Source: a virus (taxonomy: Duplodnaviria; Caudoviricetes). Taken from it: DNA of 25,526 bases. Shown one piece after another: positions 2,651 through 25,495 of the stretch. A program made the position numbers and the translations under genes. Position 1 is the stretch's first letter. Every line of letters starts with the position of its first letter. The stretch spans positions 1 through 25,526 of IMG/VR virus record IMGVR_UViG_3300031472_000007. The stretch is one strand, 5' to 3'. The notes beneath the pieces were generated by a model. It was not told the origin of the DNA. It saw nothing but the letters and a program-made list of their open reading frames with translations, and made no database searches.

Positions 2651-4984
2651 TCAGAATCCAAAACGACTGGTGTCGGTCTGGGCTATGCCCCACGGCCGCG
2701 TGCCGCACCGGATGGACAGGGCGATCCCCGTCTGGGGCTCGTACGACCGCTCCACGTGGAGCGGGTAGAGCGGGTGAGCGGGGCCGGTCATGTCCTCCGG
2801 CAGATAGTCGCTCCGCAGCACGACGGCCTGTCCCCTCGTCAGGGGCACGAGGTCCGTCGTCTCGATGTCCGTCAGCACCTCGGTCGCGACGTACACGGCC
2901 AGCGCGGCGTCGGCCATACGCTGCAACTGGCGCGCCGACGTGCCCGCCGGCGCGGTCAGCGTCTCCTCGCTCGGACTGTCGTGGTTGCTCTTGCGCGCCG
3001 TCGCCGTCAGCGCCTGACCGGTTTGGGGGTCAAACGATTGGTACGTCACCTTGTACTCGCGGCCGGCGTGGGGCTGCGGCACGGGATGCACGCGCGAGAC
3101 GGGGCCGACCGCCGCGCCGCCGCTCTGCCAGCACGTGAGCACGAGGGGCGCGGGCGGCGCGGCCGGCCGCTTGAACACCAGCACGCTGCCGTCGAAATAG
3201 AGGTCGTACCCCTGATCCTGCGCCAACTGGACACAGATATCATACTCTTTTTGGCCCGAGCGGCGCGTCTTGATGGCGTCCGTCCCGAACACGGAGCCCG
3301 TCACCTCGCCCGTCGTGTCGGCCTCCACCGTGAGGCCCTGCCCCGCGGCCGGGCCGGGCGCGTTGTGCGCCAACAGCAGGCGTGACACGATCTGGTCGGC
3401 GCGCTGATTGGCGAAGTTGTCGCCCAGCGCCGACAGTTGGCTGCTGGTGGCGGCCTGGCCCGACAGCAGGATGGAGAGGTCAGGGCATGAGAGCGTCACC
3501 GTCTCATCGGCGTTCTCGGCGTTCACGTCGATGTCCGGTGACTCGATCAGCCCCACGAACACCAACCGCAGGCAGCGCCGCATCTCCGCGCCGCCGGCGT
3601 CGGGCGCCATGTAGCCCAAATAGCCTTTGACCTCCACGTACCGCTGCCGGAAGAATTGGCGCATCACGCGCCGGCCGCGTTCCGTCGTAAACAACGCATA
3701 GGGCAACGTCGCTTTGAGCGAGCCGGGCTGGCGGTACGCCGCCTCGACCACGGATAGGCTCTCGACCGGGAACAACTCCCCGCCGATGGACACGGCCGCC
3801 GTGCCGATCAGCCCGAGATGGGCCGCGCGAGCTGCGTCCCGGTGCAGCGCGGCCCATTGGAGGCGGCCCGGCGCGACCCGAACCTGCTCCACGGGCAACT
3901 GCGGCGTGGTGTCCTGCGGCACGGGGTCCGTCGTCGCGTCGTAGGATGGCGTGCCCGCGCCCGCGGATCCGCCGCTTCCGGCGCTCGACCCGCCCACGCC
4001 GGCGGGAGCGGTCCCGTTGGGCGTCAGCGCCACGTCACTTCTGGCCTGATCCATGTAGGTGAGGTACGGTGGCGACGGGACAATGCCCGTGCGCGGATCG
4101 GGCGGCGGGTTGTAGGTGCTCCAGAAGTTCCAGTTCGTCCCCTTCGCGGAGATCGCGGCCATGGCCTGCGCGTTGTACGCCCCCTGGAACAGGAGATCGT
4201 GATTCGGGTACTCGGGGTGGGCCAGATCGTTGATCTGCCACAAGCCCCTGTCGGTGGAAACGATGGCGCCCGCGTTGTCGCGGTTATAGTTGGTGGCGTC
4301 GAGCTTGAACTGGCTCTCGGCGCGGCAGATAGCGATGCACACAGCCATCTGGTCGGCGGGGATGCCCGCCGCCTTCGCCCAATAGATCGCGTTGGCCGGC
4401 GTGACCGTGCCTGATGAGGCGGGCGTGACGACGCCCCCGCTTGCGCCCCCGCCACCTCCGCCCGTGGCGACGCCCGCGCCACTGAAGTACGGCGCAAGGT
4501 CCACGTCGCCCGACGCGATGTTGCGATCCAGGAGCGTCATCAGGTGTAGGTGCGCGCCGCTTGAGTTACCGCTGTTGGTCCCGACGCCTTGGGGCGGATC
4601 GCCGCCTGACAGTCCAACCTGCTGACCGCGCTTGACGCGATCTCCGATCCGCACATCGTGGCGCGAACAGTGCCCGAACAAGGTTGAGACATGGGGTGGG
4701 CTGCCGTCCGGGTTGTCGTACTCGATGCAGAGGTAGAGGCCGTAGCTACCGTTGAACTGGGGGCCGGACGGGTCCAACTGCTGGGCGCGCCACACCGTGC
4801 CGTCGGCGCACGCCAGGAGCGGCGTCTTATCGAGCAGTTCCATATCCCAGCCGGTGTGCCAGTGCGCCCATCCGTGGCCGGCAGGTTCGTAGGGCTGCGT
4901 GTCCTCATTATGGCCGTACTTTTGATAGAGACTGTACCGATTGAGCGCGCCCTCCCACGGCGGCGACAGGGAGATCGTCGGCAT
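2651..4984 (-). CDS. Baseplate hub fused to M23 peptidase and lysozyme/SLT-like domain (tail-associated lysin)
   Basis: M23 motifs 'HTGWD', 'YG.Y..I', 'T.FGH', 'V.IGDRVKRGQ.VG.SG..GNSSG.HLH'; then 'AI..AES......N.......DRGLWQIN..H...N..A...I...G..W..WSTY'; C-terminal gpD/gp27-like region ('VF.G.I....V......VTL.C.D', 'LAQ..GY.LYFDG..LVF'). Start ATG 4984 after GAGGAG. Confidence 0.85.
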   Translation of the reverse strand: MPTISLSPPWEGALNRYSLYQKYGHNEDTQPYEPAGHGWAHWHTGWDMELLDKTPLLACADGTVWRAQQLDPSGPQFNGSYGLYLCIEYDNPDGSPPHVSTLFGHCSRHDVRIGDRVKRGQQVGLSGGDPPQGVGTNSGNSSGAHLHLMTLLDRNIASGDVDLAPYFSGAGVATGGGGGGASGGVVTPASSGTVTPANAIYWAKAAGIPADQMAVCIAICRAESQFKLDATNYNRDNAGAIVSTDRGLWQINDLAHPEYPNHDLLFQGAYNAQAMAAISAKGTNWNFWSTYNPPPDPRTGIVPSPPYLTYMDQARSDVALTPNGTAPAGVGGSSAGSGGSAGAGTPSYDATTDPVPQDTTPQLPVEQVRVAPGRLQWAALHRDAARAAHLGLIGTAAVSIGGELFPVESLSVVEAAYRQPGSLKATLPYALFTTERGRRVMRQFFRQRYVEVKGYLGYMAPDAGGAEMRRCLRLVFVGLIESPDIDVNAENADETVTLSCPDLSILLSGQAATSSQLSALGDNFANQRADQIVSRLLLAHNAPGPAAGQGLTVEADTTGEVTGSVFGTDAIKTRRSGQKEYDICVQLAQDQGYDLYFDGSVLVFKRPAAPPAPLVLTCWQSGGAAVGPVSRVHPVPQPHAGREYKVTYQSFDPQTGQALTATARKSNHDSPSEETLTAPAGTSARQLQRMADAALAVYVATEVLTDIETTDLVPLTRGQAVVLRSDYLPEDMTGPAHPLYPLHVERSYEPQTGIALSIRCGTRPWGIAQTDTSRFGF

Positions 4985-5024
4985 AGCCCGCACACTCCTC
5001 TGCCACCATCTATCGGTCTGTGGC

Positions 5025-15000: not shown

Positions 15001-15486
15001 CTACTGTCCGGGAGGCTGAGCGGCCAATCCATCCGCGACGGTCGTCACCGCGGTCTCAAAGCCAGGCGTCACGATCCCGCTTCCGGTATCGCCGTTCTGT
15101 GCCGCCTTCTTCTTGCCACTCCCACCATTAGCGGCCAGAGCGGCATCGACCGCGGCCTTGATCTGGGCGTCGAAGTCGGCCTTGGTGATGGCCATCGTCT
15201 GCGGTGTGGCCGGGCGGCTGTCCGCGACGCGCTGGCGCTCCGCGTCCTGCTCGGCGTTGATGCGCTCCACGTCGGAATCGCGCACCTCCTCCAGGCGCCC
15301 CTCGTTGATCGCGGCGCGCACGCCGGCCGTATCCGGCACGTGATGGACGGGACGCACGGCGTTACCATCCTGGTCGAACCCGGTGACGTGCGTGGCGTGG
15401 TGCTGGCCCGTGTCCGGGTGCTCCGTGTCCTCACGATAGATGCTGTAGGCGTTGGCCAGGCGCACGTTGCGCATAGTCGTTGGCAT
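15001..15486 (-). CDS. Hypothetical head-associated protein
   Basis: Start re-called at ATG 15486 (GAGAGGGG RBS), 161 aa, GC-rich codon usage, 'V..AI..GRLEEV' patch; first co-oriented gene after the capsid. Confidence 0.7.
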   Translation of the reverse strand: MPTTMRNVRLANAYSIYREDTEHPDTGQHHATHVTGFDQDGNAVRPVHHVPDTAGVRAAINEGRLEEVRDSDVERINAEQDAERQRVADSRPATPQTMAITKADFDAQIKAAVDAALAANGGSGKKKAAQNGDTGSGIVTPGFETAVTTVADGLAAQPPGQ

Positions 15487-15541
15487 GGTTGCCCCTCTCT
15501 TTCCCCTAAATAATTTAGAAGGCATAAGGTATGCTTACGGT

Positions 15542-16087
15542 ATGAAAGATATACCTTTTGGTTTTTGCCAATGCGGTTGTGGCGAGAAGACCTCATTGGT
15601 TCCCCACAACAACGAGAAGGCTGGCCGCGTCAAGGGCCAGCCGTACCGTTTCGTCCACGGCCACGCGGGCCGCACCTACACGACGACCTACACCGTGACG
15701 GATACGGGATACAAGACGCCGTGTTGGCTGTGGGATGGGCGCACGCTTGCCAATGGCTATGCCGCAATGAACGTTGGCTCAAAAGGGGCGAAGCGAACGA
15801 AAGGTGCACACAGGGAGTACTACGAGGCGACATACGGCAAGGTAAAGCCTCGTCTAACCCTCGACCACCTGTGTGACGTGCGCCATTGCGTCAATCCCGA
15901 TCACCTCGATCCCAAGACCAATGCGGCCAACTGCCAGCGCGGGAAGGCGAGCAAGCTCGATTGGGAGAAAGTCGCCTTCATCCGCGCCTCTGAACTCCCT
16001 ACAAACGACCTGGCGCGGCATTTTGGTGTCTTTCAGACGACCATCGACGATGTGCGCGCGGGTCGGACGTGGAAGGCACAATCTTAA
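15542..16087 (+). CDS. Free-standing HNH (His-Me finger) homing-type endonuclease
   Basis: 181 aa from ATG 15542. N-terminal 'CQCGCG...RF.HGH'; nuclease core 'CW.W.G....GY...AHR..YE...G......LDHLC..R.CVNP.HL...T.A.N..RG'; C-terminal HTH 'LARHFGV....I..VR.GRTW'. Confidence 0.9.
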   Translation: MKDIPFGFCQCGCGEKTSLVPHNNEKAGRVKGQPYRFVHGHAGRTYTTTYTVTDTGYKTPCWLWDGRTLANGYAAMNVGSKGAKRTKGAHREYYEATYGKVKPRLTLDHLCDVRHCVNPDHLDPKTNAANCQRGKASKLDWEKVAFIRASELPTNDLARHFGVFQTTIDDVRAGRTWKAQS

Positions 16088-18031: not shown

Positions 18032-19543
18032 CTATATTTCGACGAGGTGCAGGTTGCGCTCATCGTCGCGGCGTCGGGATGCGTCGTCGTCGGCACGCTG
18101 ATGGGCCTCATCGCCGCGGCGCGTCGGTGGCGTCCCACCCGCGGGCATCGTCTGCCGGCCGCCGACCTGATCGGCAACCTGACCGCGCAGGCGCTCCGTC
18201 TCCGTATCGGACTGGCCGGGTGTATCCTTGCCGTACAGGCGCTTCGCCACGGCGTTGCGTTCGCCAATGAACCCAAGCAGGTCATCGGTCGTCATAGAGC
18301 CCATCGCGCGCTCGTGACGTTCCCGGTTATACTCCGCCCCGTAGGCCCGTACACCAGCTTTGTGGTACAGGGCCACGAGGTCAGAGCGATAGCGCGTCCC
18401 GTCCTGCGCCCTGGCCAGCAGGTCGCTCAATCCGGTGTCGTTCTCCACGCCTGCGGTCCGCAGCGCCACGACAAGCGGATGGTCCGCCGCCGGCTGCCGG
18501 TCCTGCTGTTGACGCGACGCGTCATCCGTCGTCGTGCCCGTGCCCGTGCCCGTGCCCGTGCCCGTGCCCGTGCCCGTGCCCGGCGCCTCCCCCTCACCCA
18601 GGGCGTCGTCGAGGACCTGCCGCCGCTCATCATCGACCGCCGCGTCGACCCCGGCCGGTCCGGTTCCGGCCGTCTTCTCTCTCTGCCCCACCACAAACCT
18701 CCCCGTCGTCCGTTTGAGAGCCTGCCAATCGAGAGCGTCCGCCATGTGACGCCCCGTAACGCGGTCAATGTCCACGATATCGGCGTGGCTGAGCACCCCA
18801 CGCGTCACCAGATCGCTCGCCTTCCGTAGCAACTGGGCGCTCGGATTCGACCCGCGCCACACATGTGAATACTCTTTGAGGCCCGCGTCCATCACCGTCG
18901 CCGTCGCTCGATGGCTCTTCGTGCCGTTGTCGCTCGCGATGACCATGCCGGGATAGTGCGTGCAGTCGCTGGAGCGCAGCAAGTTTTGTCCGCACTCGTC
19001 GCAGCGATACCAATATCCGCTCCCCCGCGGCTTTGTATTGCCGAAGCCCACCGACACATCGGGCAGGATGCCCGCGTCGATGGCGCGAATCAGGTCATCG
19101 TTGCTCGTTGACGAGGTCGTGACACCACGCGGTAGATAGTGTGCACTGTAGACGGCCGGCTTGGTCTTGGTGGCGTGTAGCGTCGTGCCTCTGGGCGTCT
19201 TGTAGTCGTCACGCACCACCTGCCCCGCAAACGAGCGGCCAATGGGGAGGTCAATAAAGCCGCTGCCGGCGGCGCCGTGGCTGTTGAGGATCGGCACCCC
19301 CTCCGTTGCGTCCTCGGCAAAGTGGGTGAGCGTCGTATCCGGATCCATCCGCGTGAAGTGTGAATCGACCGACGTGTCACTGGGCCGTGCATCGACGACG
19401 ACAACATCGTGTCGTGTCAGTGTTTTACGCGCATGCCGATTGATGGCTGCTAGTTCTTCATCGCTCGGTTCGCCGTAGGACAACACGTCGCCGCGCGTCA
19501 CGTCGAGGTCGAGCGCCGCTGTCTGATGATCCATCAGTGTCAT
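18032..19543 (-). CDS. Prohead protease fused to scaffold-like C-terminal region
   Basis: Start ATG 19543 (ATGA overlap with the upstream stop), 503 aa. 'L..IN......L', 'D...D....R', 'L.SH......PIGR.F', 'I..GI..DVSVGF', 'C..CG......C.H.PG', 'E.S.V..GS.P.A'; charged helical C-terminus. Confidence 0.8.
   Translation of the reverse strand: MTLMDHQTAALDLDVTRGDVLSYGEPSDEELAAINRHARKTLTRHDVVVVDARPSDTSVDSHFTRMDPDTTLTHFAEDATEGVPILNSHGAAGSGFIDLPIGRSFAGQVVRDDYKTPRGTTLHATKTKPAVYSAHYLPRGVTTSSTSNDDLIRAIDAGILPDVSVGFGNTKPRGSGYWYRCDECGQNLLRSSDCTHYPGMVIASDNGTKSHRATATVMDAGLKEYSHVWRGSNPSAQLLRKASDLVTRGVLSHADIVDIDRVTGRHMADALDWQALKRTTGRFVVGQREKTAGTGPAGVDAAVDDERRQVLDDALGEGEAPGTGTGTGTGTGTGTGTTTDDASRQQQDRQPAADHPLVVALRTAGVENDTGLSDLLARAQDGTRYRSDLVALYHKAGVRAYGAEYNRERHERAMGSMTTDDLLGFIGERNAVAKRLYGKDTPGQSDTETERLRGQVADQVGGRQTMPAGGTPPTRRGDEAHQRADDDASRRRDDERNLHLVEI
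18534..18581. repeat. (GTGCCC)8 in-frame microsatellite encoding (Gly-Thr)8
   Basis: Eight perfect hexamer copies read directly from the sequence. Confidence 0.95.
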
Positions 19544-21416: not shown

Positions 21417-22961
21417 CTACGACCGGCGTGGACGACCACTCGTCCATCCACCCGTGGCCGCCAGGCCAGGCGACCACCCAGAGACAACAGGAGGTGGCGC
21501 TGTCCGCACTTGCTCCGCAATAGCATAGGCCATCACGCGGTCATCCTTGAGCTGCCCGCTGGCCTCGGTCTTTCCGCCGTCCTTGACCACATACGTCCGC
21601 GCCTCGCTGATAAAGGCGGCATTATGGAAGGGCCGACGCTCTTTGATAACAACGGCCAAACCATCAATCATGATCGGCTTCGTCTTCGTGTTCGTGGGCC
21701 AGCCCACGCGCTCGGTGGCCCCCTCTGTCGCGTCAAAGTTTTTGTGCTCATACAGATGGCGGTAGCCCTCAATACTCTTAAGAGCCAAGAGCACCGTGCC
21801 GCCATGATTATTCCGCTCGACGCCGAGAATGGCGTTGTTGTAGTGCCGACACACAACAGTCATGTGATGGGCGAACGTTTCGGGTTCCCAGTGCCCGTGC
21901 AGTTCAGCCACATCCTCGCCCGTCCGCCCATCAACGATCACCGCGGCATCGTAATCGCCCTTGGGCAAACCTTCCGCCGTGTCCGCGCCGCACACGTAGC
22001 GCCGTCCCGGTTGCGGCTCCTCCCACACACGGAAGTAGCCGCCGGCGAGGTCGTCAACGCGTGTAGGAGAATGACAGGACGCGACCGCAATGTCATCAAG
22101 GGCCACGTGGTCGAAGCGCGACCGTCCCGAGAGGGCAAACGCACGCGCCGGCGTCGAGGGGTAATCCTGGTGCTTGAACCACTCCTCATAGCCCTGCGTG
22201 TTGCGATCGTACCACGCCTGGTCGCGGCCCGGCCGCACGTCCCACGGCAGAAAAATGCCGTGCATGGCGCCCGGTTCGCCGTTTTCCCAGGCCAGCCACA
22301 ACTCATGGAAGATATCGCCAGCCCCGTTGGCCGTCGAAATGACGAGAATCTTGTTCCCTGCTGAGCGCGCCGTCACCGACGCTGCCTGGAAGATCGCCCG
22401 CGCATACTCCTGATGGGCAAACTCGTCGAGGATCAGGAGTTGGCAGTTGAGGCCGCGCGCACTGCCTTCTGTCGCCACCTGGGGCAAGATACGTGACCCA
22501 TTCACCAACTCAAGCGTCGTCGTCAAGCGCGGGTTACGCAGCGACGCACGTAACCACACGGGGAGGTGATCCCAGGCGATGCGCGTTTTGTTGGCAAACT
22601 CCGTCGCGTGCGGCCCGTCCTGGCTGATAACAATGACCTTATTATGCCCGTGAAAGTTGATCTGCCACAGGGCGTAGGCGGCCGCCAGTTCGGACACGCC
22701 TAACTGGCGGGCCTTGAGCATCACACACTCACGATGCTCGATCCAGGCCACCAACACCGCGCGTTGGTACTCATACAAACGGAACGGAATAACGCCGGCG
22801 CCCGTGTCCGCTTCGACCATGCAGTAGGTGTCGATGAAATAGGCGGGGTCACGCGCGCACCGCCGGCGCTCGTCTTCGCGCCAGGCAATTTCGATGTCAA
22901 GGGTACGGCGTCGATCAGTCAGACTCAGCAAGGGACGCGCGATAGGCGGCAAGCTCGTCAT
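21417..22961 (-). CDS. terL: Terminase large subunit
   Basis: Adenine-binding 'LYEYQ', Walker A 'LKARQLGVS', Walker B 'LLILDEFAH', 'ISTANG', RNase H-like 'YVCGADTAEG...GD', 'VERNNHG', 'DDRVMA.AIA'. Confidence 0.96.
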   Translation of the reverse strand: MTSLPPIARPLLSLTDRRRTLDIEIAWREDERRRCARDPAYFIDTYCMVEADTGAGVIPFRLYEYQRAVLVAWIEHRECVMLKARQLGVSELAAAYALWQINFHGHNKVIVISQDGPHATEFANKTRIAWDHLPVWLRASLRNPRLTTTLELVNGSRILPQVATEGSARGLNCQLLILDEFAHQEYARAIFQAASVTARSAGNKILVISTANGAGDIFHELWLAWENGEPGAMHGIFLPWDVRPGRDQAWYDRNTQGYEEWFKHQDYPSTPARAFALSGRSRFDHVALDDIAVASCHSPTRVDDLAGGYFRVWEEPQPGRRYVCGADTAEGLPKGDYDAAVIVDGRTGEDVAELHGHWEPETFAHHMTVVCRHYNNAILGVERNNHGGTVLLALKSIEGYRHLYEHKNFDATEGATERVGWPTNTKTKPIMIDGLAVVIKERRPFHNAAFISEARTYVVKDGGKTEASGQLKDDRVMAYAIAEQVRTAPPPVVSGWSPGLAATGGWTSGRPRRS

Positions 22962-23379
22962 CCGACATCGCCTTTACATCGACCGGTTGATACGTCTGTG
23001 TTCCATCGGGCGTCACGGGCGCGATCTTCGTCGGCGCGTCCAGCCCCAGCAATTTCCGCCGACTCTCACTCACCCGCAGCGCCCGATCCACGGCCCCCAG
23101 ATCACCTTTCCCTAAGTGCCCCGCGATACTGATGAGCAGGGCGTCCAGGCGCGCTATCTCCAACAGGCGCAGGGCGTCGGCGTCTGTGAGCGCCTCGGCG
23201 CGCAACTCAGTCAGCACCGCCTGCACATCCTCACGCACCGTCTCGTGGCTGACGTTCACCTGTTCCGCAATCATGCGATACGTCGCGCCGTTCTTACGCA
23301 GCGCCCAGACCTGCTGGCGCCGCTGCACGATGCGCTCGTTCTCGCCCGGAAACACCTTCCTCCGTCTTTCTCTTGACAT
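22915..23379 (-). CDS. terS: Terminase small subunit (HTH type)
   Basis: N-terminal HTH 'LR..GATYR.IAEQ..VS..TV..D', 'E..RLD.L', 'RRKLLGLDAP'; overlaps the TerL start. Confidence 0.8.
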   Translation of the reverse strand: MSRERRRKVFPGENERIVQRRQQVWALRKNGATYRMIAEQVNVSHETVREDVQAVLTELRAEALTDADALRLLEIARLDALLISIAGHLGKGDLGAVDRALRVSESRRKLLGLDAPTKIAPVTPDGTQTYQPVDVKAMSDDELAAYRASLAESD

Positions 23380-23402
23380 GCCATATCACCATGCTGTATA
23401 CT
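23373..23402 (+). promoter_or_regulatory. Near-consensus sigma70 promoter for the ASCH gene
   Basis: TTGACA (23373-23378) - 18 nt - TATACT (23397-23402), 50 nt before the ASCH start; the -35 box overlaps the terS start codon. Confidence 0.75.
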
Positions 23403-23452
23403 ATGAGTAGAGACATATGCGCTATCTAGAGCGATGAGCGAGGCAAAGATTG

Positions 23453-23815
23453 ATGAAAGCCTTAACGATGCGGCAGCCTTGGTTATCATTATTGATTGAC
23501 GGCGAAAAGCCATGCGAGTATCGCTCATGGTCCACGTCGTATCGTGGACCTGTCCTATTGCACGCGGGACGGGCACGCGACACGACGATGGATGCGCGTG
23601 TGTGCGACGATGCGCCGCGCGGCGTCATCGTCGCACAGGCCATGCTGGACGCCATCTATCACCTCACCGCCGAGGATGCTGAGGTGCTCACGACAGATCA
23701 CGAAACGCCTGTCGTCGGCGCGTACGCCTGGTGGTTCTCGCGCATCACGCCGTTGCCCCAGCCTATTCCCTATCGAGGGGCGCTGGGTCTGTGGGAAGCC
23801 AGGATACCCCTGTAA
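23453..23815 (+). CDS. ASCH domain protein
   Basis: Signature 'MKALT.RQPW..L...G.K..EYRSW.T.YRGP.L.HA', 'P.G.IV', 'YAW', 'PIP.RG.LGLW'. Confidence 0.92.
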   Translation: MKALTMRQPWLSLLIDGEKPCEYRSWSTSYRGPVLLHAGRARDTTMDARVCDDAPRGVIVAQAMLDAIYHLTAEDAEVLTTDHETPVVGAYAWWFSRITPLPQPIPYRGALGLWEARIPL

Positions 23816-23822
23816 GGGGTAA

Positions 23823-23894
23823 AGCGTGGAGGTGGGAATCGAACCCCCTCAGCTGGACTGGACGCCCAACCTGCAACCAGTACATCATCCACGC
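23823..23894 (-). tRNA. Non-canonical tRNA-Gly(TCC)-like element
   Basis: Minus strand reads GCGTGGA TG ATGT ACTGGTT GCAG G TTGGG CGTCCAG TCCAG CTGA GGGGG TTCGATT CCC(A)CC TCCACGC T. It has a 7-bp acceptor stem, D-loop GG, a 5-bp anticodon stem (two G-U), anticodon TCC at 23862-23860, canonical T-loop and U73. No encoded CCA. Confidence 0.8.
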
Positions 23895-24481
23895 ATGAGC
23901 GCTGTATGAAGCGCGTCAATGCGCGCTTTGACAGCGGGAGTCAGTCCATACGCCAACTTTTGAGTGGGTGTTGTCACCATCTTATGCGAGACACGCCGCT
24001 CCGCGCCTGACCCATAACGGTCATGGAAGGTCTTGATCGACATCTTCTCACCCGTCGTTGTGATCTCCACGGCACTTGGGTTGCGATTGAGTGCAACCAT
24101 CTTCCACCCACACGCGCGATACGCCGTCGCCGCCTCATCCAGGCCGCAATAGGTCAACAGCACACGCAAATGGGGATACTGTCTGGCAATCAACGTGCAG
24201 GACACGCCAAGCGCGCGACTTTCACTATTGCGCGGCGGCGTGTCGTCCACGATCATGCGGCGCAGTTCCAACGCGTCACGCGATCGCAGGCCCAACGCAT
24301 GAACGGCGTTGTTGACGACGGGGCTGCCCCAGGCCAACACCCCATGCAGCTGTCCTTCCCACACGAGACCAAGATAGACACTGCCGGGTTGTGACGCGTT
24401 GCGCTCATGATGCTGATCCATGAAACGCTCAGCTGAGCGGCGCTCAATAGGCGTGAGGCGCAGGCTACCTTTGAGTGACAT
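23885..24481 (-). CDS. Mom-family GNAT-fold DNA adenine-modifying enzyme (Mom-like)
   Basis: 'I....A..F...HH', 'LGL...G.L.GV..WG.P', 'LEL.R....D..P.NSESR.L', 'LLTY', 'AY.A.GW' follow the Mom-family pattern; location just upstream of terminase is typical of phage DNA-modification genes. Confidence 0.82.
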   Translation of the reverse strand: MSLKGSLRLTPIERRSAERFMDQHHERNASQPGSVYLGLVWEGQLHGVLAWGSPVVNNAVHALGLRSRDALELRRMIVDDTPPRNSESRALGVSCTLIARQYPHLRVLLTYCGLDEAATAYRACGWKMVALNRNPSAVEITTTGEKMSIKTFHDRYGSGAERRVSHKMVTTPTQKLAYGLTPAVKARIDALHTALMRG

Positions 24482-25085
24482 CTTTGATGCGCGCCATCAT
24501 CGCCTGACCCAGACTCTCGGGGCTCGGCAAGCGATCACTCCCCAAAAACGCGCACAAGAGGGGCTCGTCGTTGTCGGTGTAGGAGCAACTAAAACGATGC
24601 GTCATCGTCGGTTCAATAACGGGCCACGCCTGCTCCGTGATAGCGCCGCTGTCGGGGACCACGCCTGCTGTCATCGCCAGATCGTCCAGCACGCCCTGAA
24701 GCGCGGCGCTCTGCGTGTCCACCGTGCGCAACAGGTCGCCGACGACCTCGCGTGACGGGACCGCCATCGCCCCGATAGGGTCGAACAGCGCCAACACCTT
24801 GCGCTCTTCGTCGAGGGACAGGTCCACGTACTCCACGGACACAACGGGTTCATCGCGTGACAGAGCCAGCTCGACGCGCAGATGACCGTCGATCAGGTGC
24901 TGGGTGCGCCGATTGACGATGACGCGCTGGACGATGCCCACCTCGTCAATCAAGTCAGAGAGAGCCTCACGCTGCGCCCTGGGATGGATGCGAAAATTAG
25001 AAGGATTTGCGAGTAGATGAGATGGGTCCTCTTCCCCTACACCCACAATCCTATTGCGCCACGACTCGTGTGCCTTGCGTGTCAT
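24465..25085 (-). CDS. ParB/Srx-like N-terminal domain protein (DNA-modification associated type)
   Basis: 'L.ANP.N.R.HP..Q...L...I.EVG....VIVN..T..LIDGHLR...A......V.V.YVDLS..EE...L...D'; GAGGG RBS; overlaps the Mom-like start by 17 nt. Confidence 0.88.
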   Translation of the reverse strand: MTRKAHESWRNRIVGVGEEDPSHLLANPSNFRIHPRAQREALSDLIDEVGIVQRVIVNRRTQHLIDGHLRVELALSRDEPVVSVEYVDLSLDEERKVLALFDPIGAMAVPSREVVGDLLRTVDTQSAALQGVLDDLAMTAGVVPDSGAITEQAWPVIEPTMTHRFSCSYTDNDEPLLCAFLGSDRLPSPESLGQAMMARIKDVTQR

Positions 25086-25400: not shown

Positions 25401-25443
25401 AAAAGGGCCACACGTCCGTTATCACTGGACGTGTGGCCCTTTT
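25401..25443. terminator. Strong bidirectional intrinsic terminator
   Basis: Perfect 17-bp inverted repeat AAAAGGGCCACACGTCC (25401-25417) / GGACGTGTGGCCCTTTT (25427-25443), 9-nt loop, T-run on both strands. Confidence 0.85.
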
Positions 25444-25465: not shown

Positions 25466-25495
25466 ACTATACCAGGGCCATCGCTACGGTGTCAA
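25466..25495 (-). promoter_or_regulatory. Putative late-operon promoter
   Basis: Minus strand TTGACA (25495-25490) - 18 nt - TATAGT (25471-25466) with an extended -10 TGn, pointing into the whole structural operon. Confidence 0.75.

Follow-up and report, generated by a model that had tools for sequence, protein, structure and literature searches.

The mom locus of the window

The window analysed here, 25,526 nt long, is the whole of the linear virus record IMGVR_UViG_3300031472_000007, which has a G+C content of 66%, is 24% complete according to CheckV and is represented in rock-metagenome runs. Its late operon, with terminase, portal and capsid genes recognised by Pfam and PHROGs, runs on the minus strand. 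Upstream of the terminase genes, on the same strand, lie a promoter-like site, a ParB-like gene, a Mom-like gene and a tRNA-Gly-like RNA (Table 1), and an ASCH gene on the plus strand, which has a promoter-like site of its own, faces this ParB-mom-RNA unit. Three sigma-70-type sites were found versus 0.8 ± 1.0 in shuffled sequences. The hairpin directly behind the RNA is a possible 3' boundary or processing signal.

Table 1. Features of the mom locus and of the adjoining packaging genes in the window
Feature	Position	Strand	Basis or remark
tRNA-Gly-like RNA, 72 nt to U73, anticodon TCC, no encoded CCA	23823..23894	-	cloverleaf; model R1
Bulged A between T-stem positions 63 and 64	23833..23833	-	fold; kept in 10/10 distinct protein-found relatives
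Anticodon loop G33-U34-C35-C36-A37, 5 nt, closed by C32-G38	23859..23863	-	fold
Mom-family GNAT, 198 aa, divergent clade with TYC motif	23885..24481	-	PF25680, phrog_1384, fold match
ParB-like gene overlapping the mom start	24465..25085	-	phrog_620 E 8e-7, phrog_498 E 9e-10
ASCH-domain gene, TRIP4/EOLA1 type, tail to tail with the RNA	23450..23815	+	PF04266 E 1e-5
Sigma-70-type promoter-like site upstream of ASCH, 11/12	23373..23402	+	motif match
Sigma-70-type promoter-like site upstream of the ParB-mom-RNA unit, 11/12, extended TG	25466..25495	-	motif match
7-bp hairpin immediately after U73 and across the ASCH stop codon	23805..23821	.	hairpin search
Terminase small subunit gene (HTH)	22915-23379	-	Pfam, PHROGs; packaging-module context
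Terminase large subunit gene	21417-22961	-	Pfam, PHROGs; packaging-module context

A contig from a run of another study (X2) covers positions 23749-23941 with 0 differences, so the G33 and the bulge of the RNA are not assembly errors. In run X3, one contig (depth 4.9), which comes from a related phage, joins 23718 to 25033, skipping 1314 nt, and is without most of parB, mom, the RNA and the 3' end of the ASCH gene; its upstream sequence has diverged, and the diverged variant is present in run X2 too. This one contig is a hint that parB, mom, the RNA and ASCH may be lost together as a block.

Several other features of the window were recorded. A perfect 17-bp hairpin with a terminal T run (25401-25443, minus strand) follows the promoter-like site at 25495 at a distance of about 20 nt and might serve the late operon in attenuation or antitermination. 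Within the minus-strand head operon, an HNH endonuclease gene on the plus strand (15452-16087) faces the end of the capsid gene. A 536-aa ORF upstream of the capsid gene contains a run of Gly-Thr dipeptide repeats (18530-18580), and a baseplate-type protein (2651-4993) has M23 peptidase and lytic transglycosylase domains.

A tRNA-Gly-like RNA family with a bulged T-stem

The RNA of the window starts with nucleotide 1 at 23894 and ends 72 nt later with U73 at 23823; the stop codon of mom makes up its nucleotides 8-10, the overlap of gene and RNA being 10 nt. It keeps the complete bacterial glycyl-tRNA synthetase (GlyRS) identity set, as tabulated in the available portion of PMC9976931 (G1-C72, C2-G71, G3-C70, U73, C35 and C36), with the anticodon TCC at 23862-23860. 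Position 33 (23863) is G, an extra A bulges from the T-stem, the weak D-stem has an A10/G25 mismatch and a U13-G22 pair, and positions 15 and 48 are C and A. All features and coordinates stated in the original prediction were confirmed in the sequence. It did not mention that C32 can pair with G38, giving a 6-bp anticodon stem and a 5-nt loop that is 5 kcal/mol better than the 7-nt loop, that no CCA is encoded, TTA following U73, or that pair 4-69 is U-A. The T-loop is TTC. U33, a 7-nt anticodon loop and an unbroken 5-bp T-stem are all missing from this RNA.

Standard annotation overlooks or underrates this RNA: ARAGORN called no tRNA at this place, and RF00005 gave 14.6 bits, below its cut-off of 29. 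A tRNA-Sec was rejected (28.7 bits versus a cut-off of 47, no long variable arm, Gly identity), and so was a mismatch register of the T-stem (G50/A64 with an extra C), which is 3.3 kcal/mol worse, covariation favouring the bulge register. The folding of the RNA alone was modest (z -1.9, with 7 of 200 shuffles as good), and a chance origin of the cloverleaf is unlikely because of the evidence from its family rather than the fold score of this single copy. Model R1, built without the window, assigned the RNA 58.2 bits (E 6e-14), the next match in the window reaching 16.2 bits. The exact 22-nt T-arm pattern of the window copy had 0 viral matches.

Relatives were sought from the protein side, which yields a set of RNAs unselected for the bulge. 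All eight loci found with a peptide pattern of the Mom clade hold the RNA (five are independent: L125, L126/127, L128/129, L130/131 and L132, where all points on L132 rest on an unpublished genome, G005), as do six of the seven mom loci from 401 Chloroflexota genomes, while two false pattern matches without Mom hold none. In the clade loci, the RNA lies in frame with mom, just downstream of it, or, in L125, L126 and L128, 200-1000 nt downstream behind an antisense gene. The bulged A is kept in all ten distinct RNAs of this set, and in their alignment A6, which was fitted to the model, acceptor and T-stem cells are 100% paired around the bulge. Of the 11 rows, 4 have a change of both bases in the neighbouring pair 49-65, 2 in 50-64 and 5 in 51-63. 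A second clade pattern gave no new clade locus and two false matches, and a related-locus search with the three closest proteins (including P0002 and P0003) found none in viral contigs and, in metagenomes, the record of the window only. No RNA was found near mom in nine of the ten cultured-phage loci examined (Mu, JD024, PX29, PMBT8, Phynn, SplendidRed, Darwin, P12002L and WaterT), nor in searches of the whole records of Mu, JD024 and P12002L.

The best-scoring cultured match was Psychrobacter phage Y8A (OQ059336.1, L002), which has the ParB-mom-terminase synteny. Its Mom gene is unannotated and is followed by a tandem pair of D-armless RNA copies (L002:2162-2226 and 2234-2299), both showing the bulged A of the window RNA. 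This cultured phage is a ready experimental system. A bulged-arm motif derived from the Y8A copies and the window matched about 1400 viral stretches, of which 120 were listed; in this set the bulge and the acceptor end are fixed by the search pattern, and the 5' half lies outside the motif. The original prediction had expected relatives to carry the RNA beside mom, which is what both approaches gave: a Mom profile match lies on the same strand in 107 of the 120 listed loci, with a weak opposite-strand match in one more. The remaining 12 have no Mom match, eight of them being short or cut. The other four (L009, L029, L033 and L066) are full-length loci with the bulged RNA and without a Mom profile match within 1.5 kb, and possibly contain very distant Moms or another partner. 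In almost all listed loci the RNA and mom overlap or adjoin, with the RNA in frame at the 5' or the 3' end of the gene. The acceptor stem is fully paired (7/7, best offset chosen) in 114 loci, CCA is encoded in 89, and ARAGORN accepts 25 of the 120.

The listed loci contain 115 distinct RNAs, of which 76 full-length ones with a perfect acceptor stem were aligned, leaving out 33 short RNAs, six imperfect ones and the window. In this alignment 95.3% of cells pair and 15 of 22 pairs show a compensatory change, the seven invariant pairs being fixed by the motif and hence uninformative; covariation was 0.629, compared with 0.163 ± 0.009 for shuffled versions and no more than 0.146 for slid controls. 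The stems thus show compensatory change instead of random decay. The NCC anticodon, U73 and T-stem bulge on which the proposed covariance-model check had turned are conserved, with the bulge and acceptor end fixed by the motif in the listed set, and the bulge kept in 10/10 of the protein-found set. The anticodon is TCC in 74, ACC in 36 and CCC in 5 of the 115 RNAs, CC at 35-36 occurring in every one (CC was sought in a five-place window). Position 33 is T in 57, A in 27, G in 25 and C in 6, so the G33 emphasised in the original prediction is real in the window and is not fixed in the family. The features common to the family are the bulge and an anticodon loop of 5-6 nt, rather than G33: in the best stem the loop has 5 nt in 76 RNAs, 6 nt in 33 and 7 nt in six. 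The T-loop starts with TGC in 73 of the 115, most of the D arm is absent in 33, and a pyrimidine at position 4 is the majority state (77).

In 13 host genomes model R1 also scored ordinary tRNAs, up to 57 bits, and the ten best non-mom matches were all tRNA-Gly with U33, a 7-nt loop and no bulge. Model bits were consequently rejected as a test of membership, and the high scores of host tRNA-Gly indicate that the family originated from tRNA-Gly; its lesions and context define it, and the score does not. The RNA is real, conserved and strongly linked to mom.

A divergent Mom clade with an ASCH neighbour

The Mom-like protein matches PF25680 with E 7e-20 (71.9 bits versus a curated cut-off of 27.1) and also phrog_1384, and shows a sequence-level match to PDB 8BV8 (E 4e-7). 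Its AlphaFold model has a pLDDT of 92.9, and the best Foldseek match of this model is Mu Mom, 8BV8 (TM 0.70, E 9e-14). By profiles and a confident fold model, the protein belongs to the Mom family, as had been supposed from the letters of the window. Within the family it falls into a separate clade: a profile search showed a gap between 48 clusters at E < 1e-57 (part of the 48 being in the query) and the next matches at E > 1e-30. A quick tree, whose 50 rows comprised every second long clade protein, one in six of 72 other Moms, four clade loci and ten named phages, separates the clade from the rest by a branch of length 1.55 (SH-aLRT 100).

In Mu numbering, 54 clade proteins were compared with the 72 other Moms. 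H58, S124 and Y159 are kept in the clade. Y59, which is Y in 72/72 other Moms, is never kept (P in 39 of 54); R111, R in 72/72 others, is K in 49 clade proteins and R in five; D149, D in 72/72 others, is D in 36, E in 12 and G in three; and G156, G in 72/72 others, is A in 54/54. A148 is replaced by C in 53 of the 54, and two residues are deleted in all of them. The window enzyme keeps H58 and Y159 as well as the essential R111 and S124 (its R75 and S88), and has the changes Y59 to E, A148 to C, D149 to G, R151 to D and G156 to A; R151 is not conserved in the 72 other Moms either. As described in the available portions of PMC13219725, Mu Mom mutants at Y59 and D149, as well as R111K, lose most activity, and R151 mutants lose activity. 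Since Mu mutants at positions altered in the clade lose most activity, the chemistry of the clade may be altered relative to that of Mu. With Y59 to E, D149 to G and a clade that has an ASCH neighbour, the window enzyme is not a typical Mom, and its product need not be 6-NcmdA.

The ASCH protein of the window scores 26.5 bits with PF04266 (cut-off 21.2), and profile A5 matches the TRIP4 ASCH domain with E 4e-18; its G-x-K-x-x-E/T-x-R octapeptide is intact (K20, E23, R25). Besides the window, a PF04266 gene lies within about 0.9 kb of the RNA in L125, L126/127 and L130, and the antisense neighbours in L128/129 and L132, in which Pfam, PHROGs and hhalign recognised no ASCH domain, match ASCH by structure in the ESM Atlas (TM 0.71-0.86 and 0.81, respectively). 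An ASCH-fold gene is therefore present at six of six independent clade loci, the window included, five times tail to tail with mom, and a ParB-like gene lies upstream of mom in the five independent loci other than the window. By comparison, PF04266 was found in 0 of 46 other mom-plus-RNA records, most of which are fragments, and 0 of 97 control loci matched any of six ASCH proteins, although a fourth remote type could hide there. The three ASCH types do not detect one another with phmmer, which suggests that ASCH genes may have been recruited repeatedly. No fused Mom-ASCH form was seen among the longer proteins searched, which is weak evidence. In L125 (3074-4111), the ASCH gene and, on the opposite strand, a LAGLIDADG-like ORF separate mom from the RNA.

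Known activities of ASCH proteins are the hydrolysis of N4-acylcytidine and the removal of ac4C from tRNA, for which they use the K and E of the octapeptide; hydrolase activity varies among the GKER members (bioRxiv 10.64898/2026.02.27.708502, available portions). The domain has also been predicted to read modified adenine, and ASCH genes occur beside adenine methyltransferases (PMC4738411, available portions). The window protein resembles other members of the superfamily (YqfB, TthASCH, EOLA1, TRIP4) in keeping the K and E essential for ac4C removal. The L128 neighbour, in contrast, has Q in place of the catalytic K. The ASCH protein encoded beside mom would either read the Mom product or de-acylate it.

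A candidate glycyl donor for DNA modification

Aminoacyl-tRNA in cells is sequestered by EF-Tu. From the results above we consider it probable that the RNA is a dedicated glycyl donor, excluded from translation, for the protective modification of phage DNA by the adjacent Mom. The RNA would be cut out of the ParB-mom transcript by host RNase P at G1, a cleavage that would remove the last codons and the stop of mom too, and would receive its CCA from the host. Host GlyRS would then charge it with glycine by way of G1-C72, C2-G71, G3-C70, U73, C35 and C36. The bulge interrupts the three T-stem pairs read by EF-Tu (PMC3239215, available portion) and would let the RNA escape this factor, the 5-nt loop and the free position 33 would withdraw it from decoding, and Mom would pass the glycyl group on to an exocyclic amine in a DNA base, adenine N6 being the target of Mu Mom. 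Invariant CC at 35-36, a mostly encoded CCA and free positions 33 and 34 point to selection for charging and not for decoding; with the GlyRS set kept, the decoding positions drifting and the pairs read by EF-Tu broken, a private donor is the simplest account. No published measurement of EF-Tu binding to a bulged T-stem was found in the portions of the literature consulted.

Mu Mom itself takes glycine from Gly-tRNA-Gly, as the original prediction had noted, and probably reads the acceptor end only; all three E. coli tRNA-Gly isoacceptors serve it, and no private RNA is needed (PMC13219725, available portions). As Mu Mom works with host tRNA-Gly alone, the RNA described here is an accessory, and this independence of Mu Mom, together with the nine of ten cultured-phage mom loci without the RNA, speaks against a donor role. 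So do the window copy without CCA and an enzyme that departs from Mu at Y59, D149 and R151. The GlyRS of L. plantarum, which may not be the enzyme of the host, prefers a purine at position 4 and a pyrimidine at 69 and needs the whole L shape (PMC10464925, available portion); the U4-A69 of the window RNA is off this preference. Charging may be reduced by U4-A69 and, in some members, by the missing D arm, which counts against a donor as well.

The RNA could instead act in cis: as a tRNA-like part of the mom message, it would keep a toxic DNA-modifying enzyme in check, either by bringing about RNase P cleavage or by binding Mom or GlyRS, without ever serving as a glycyl donor. The near-constant, in-frame overlap or contact with mom and the stop codon that cleavage at G1 would remove here speak for this, and Mu has a translational control gene of its own, com, without an RNA. 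However, a cis element would not account for the CCA encoded in 89 of the 120 listed loci or for the full GlyRS set kept at both ends, and the position of the RNA is free (5' end, 3' end or in tandem in L002), those copies 200-1000 nt downstream in L125, L126 and L128 being unable to remove a stop. We regard a purely cis-acting element as unlikely, although such a role may coexist with that of a donor, since excision would cut off the mom stop codon. Very unlikely, in our view, is an unusual tRNA-Gly that still takes part in translation, or a decoy, with the task of replenishing glycine tRNAs that Mom depletes or host anticodon nucleases cleave. Pool compensation would fit the linkage to mom, GGA is used least among the Gly codons in 11 long ORFs of the window (46/476), and ARAGORN does accept 25 of the 120 listed members. 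Against it stand the 5-6-nt anticodon loops in 109 of 115 listed RNAs, the free position 33, A34 in 36 of the 115, the D arm lost in 33 and a bulge that lies in the EF-Tu site. Anticodon loops of 5-6 nt are not known to decode, and the staphylococcal case agrees.

The charged RNA might also serve a different partner or another pathway, such as the ParB-like protein or a T-box-type signal, the linkage to mom reflecting a shared module. A ParB-like gene indeed precedes mom at six of six independent clade loci, in L002 and in the Dehalococcoides modules, but the RNA is embedded in or abuts mom and not parB, and Mom is the one neighbour known to consume Gly-tRNA-Gly, which leaves this explanation with a slimmer chance still. 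A decayed tRNA or a leftover attachment site is hardly conceivable. The weak scores on standard models and the D-stem, the weakest arm, would fit decay; yet the same lesion recurs at the same place in 10/10 protein-found relatives with covarying neighbours, the whole cloverleaf covaries, and no integrase was recognised in the ORFs scanned around the RNA. Covariation, linkage to mom and the conserved bulge largely refute such a remnant.

The pairing of mom with a tRNA-Gly-like element is already in print, with no function given: McMurdie et al. (2011; PMC3146451, available portions) described a 76-bp tRNA-Gly-like 'pseudo-tRNA' inside the mom homologue of 16 Dehalococcoides ssrA islands. It shares with our RNA the ParB-mom context and a DCC anticodon in a 5-nt loop, and differs in lying within the first 150 bp of mom, whereas the RNA of the window spans the mom stop codon. 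The account predates the Mom chemistry, and the bulge is not mentioned in its available portions. In small Chloroflexota genomes, RNAs at the 5' end of mom score 53-66 bits with model R1 and have the bulged A; we infer that these are the loci of McMurdie et al. With Mu Mom (PF25680, PDB 8BV8; Silva et al. 2026, PMC13219725, available portions) the window enzyme shares the GNAT fold with an insertion, the residues H58, R111, S124 and Y159 and, as its linked RNA implies, a glycine donor. It differs in the substitutions Y59 to E, A148 to C, D149 to G and G156 to A, in the two-residue deletion, in the long branch of its clade and in the ASCH neighbour; Mu uses host tRNA-Gly and encodes no such RNA, and the text and supplementary files of PMC13219725 examined mention no phage-encoded tRNA. 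The present analysis adds a Mom of a distinct clade with altered catalytic residues and an ASCH-fold gene at 6/6 independent loci; the product of this Mom may differ from that of Mu. No paper stating a private mom-linked tRNA-Gly donor, or an ASCH-Mom linkage, was found in a search that mostly did not extend to subscription literature.

By analogy, the Mom RNA may work like the non-proteinogenic tRNA-Gly NP1-NP3 of staphylococci (PMC7826273 and PMC3239215, available portions), which are donors for GNAT-fold transferases, bind EF-Tu weakly and have a 6-bp anticodon stem, a 5-nt loop and a TGC T-loop. Those tRNAs, however, are chromosomal, belong to the staphylococcal lineage and feed FmhB, FemA and FemB for peptidoglycan synthesis, and their weak binding is ascribed to T-stem pairs, whereas the Mom RNA is phage-borne and bulged, has a TTC T-loop in the window copy and is not a member of that group. 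If the donor reading is right, phages encode an orthogonal aminoacyl carrier that feeds a DNA-disguising enzyme without competing with EF-Tu. This would be a second setting for a dedicated non-translating tRNA-Gly, after staphylococcal cell-wall synthesis, and one that uses a different device, a one-base T-stem bulge. It would also give a function to the 'pseudo-tRNA' noted in 2011 and a name to a large RNA family mostly missed by tRNA finders.

The ASCH-linked clade points to a possibly new, reversible modification of DNA bases. A further, tentative and rather doubtful proposal is a viral writer-carrier-eraser module composed of the private bulged Gly-tRNA, the remodelled Mom clade and an ASCH amidohydrolase as eraser, acting on a base mark other than 6-NcmdA. 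With Y59 and mostly also R111 replaced, the invariant Cys beside the D149 position might serve as a glycyl-thioester relay; the mark might be, for example, an N-glycyl amide that has not rearranged, at N4 of cytosine or N6 of adenine; and the repeatedly recruited, oppositely transcribed ASCH protein might remove or recycle it.

A trace of the RNA is visible in the proteins themselves: 18 of the 54 clade proteins (P0004-P0190) end in a GGSxPTxxL-like tail, which is the translated T-arm of the RNA and provides a marker for it at the protein level.
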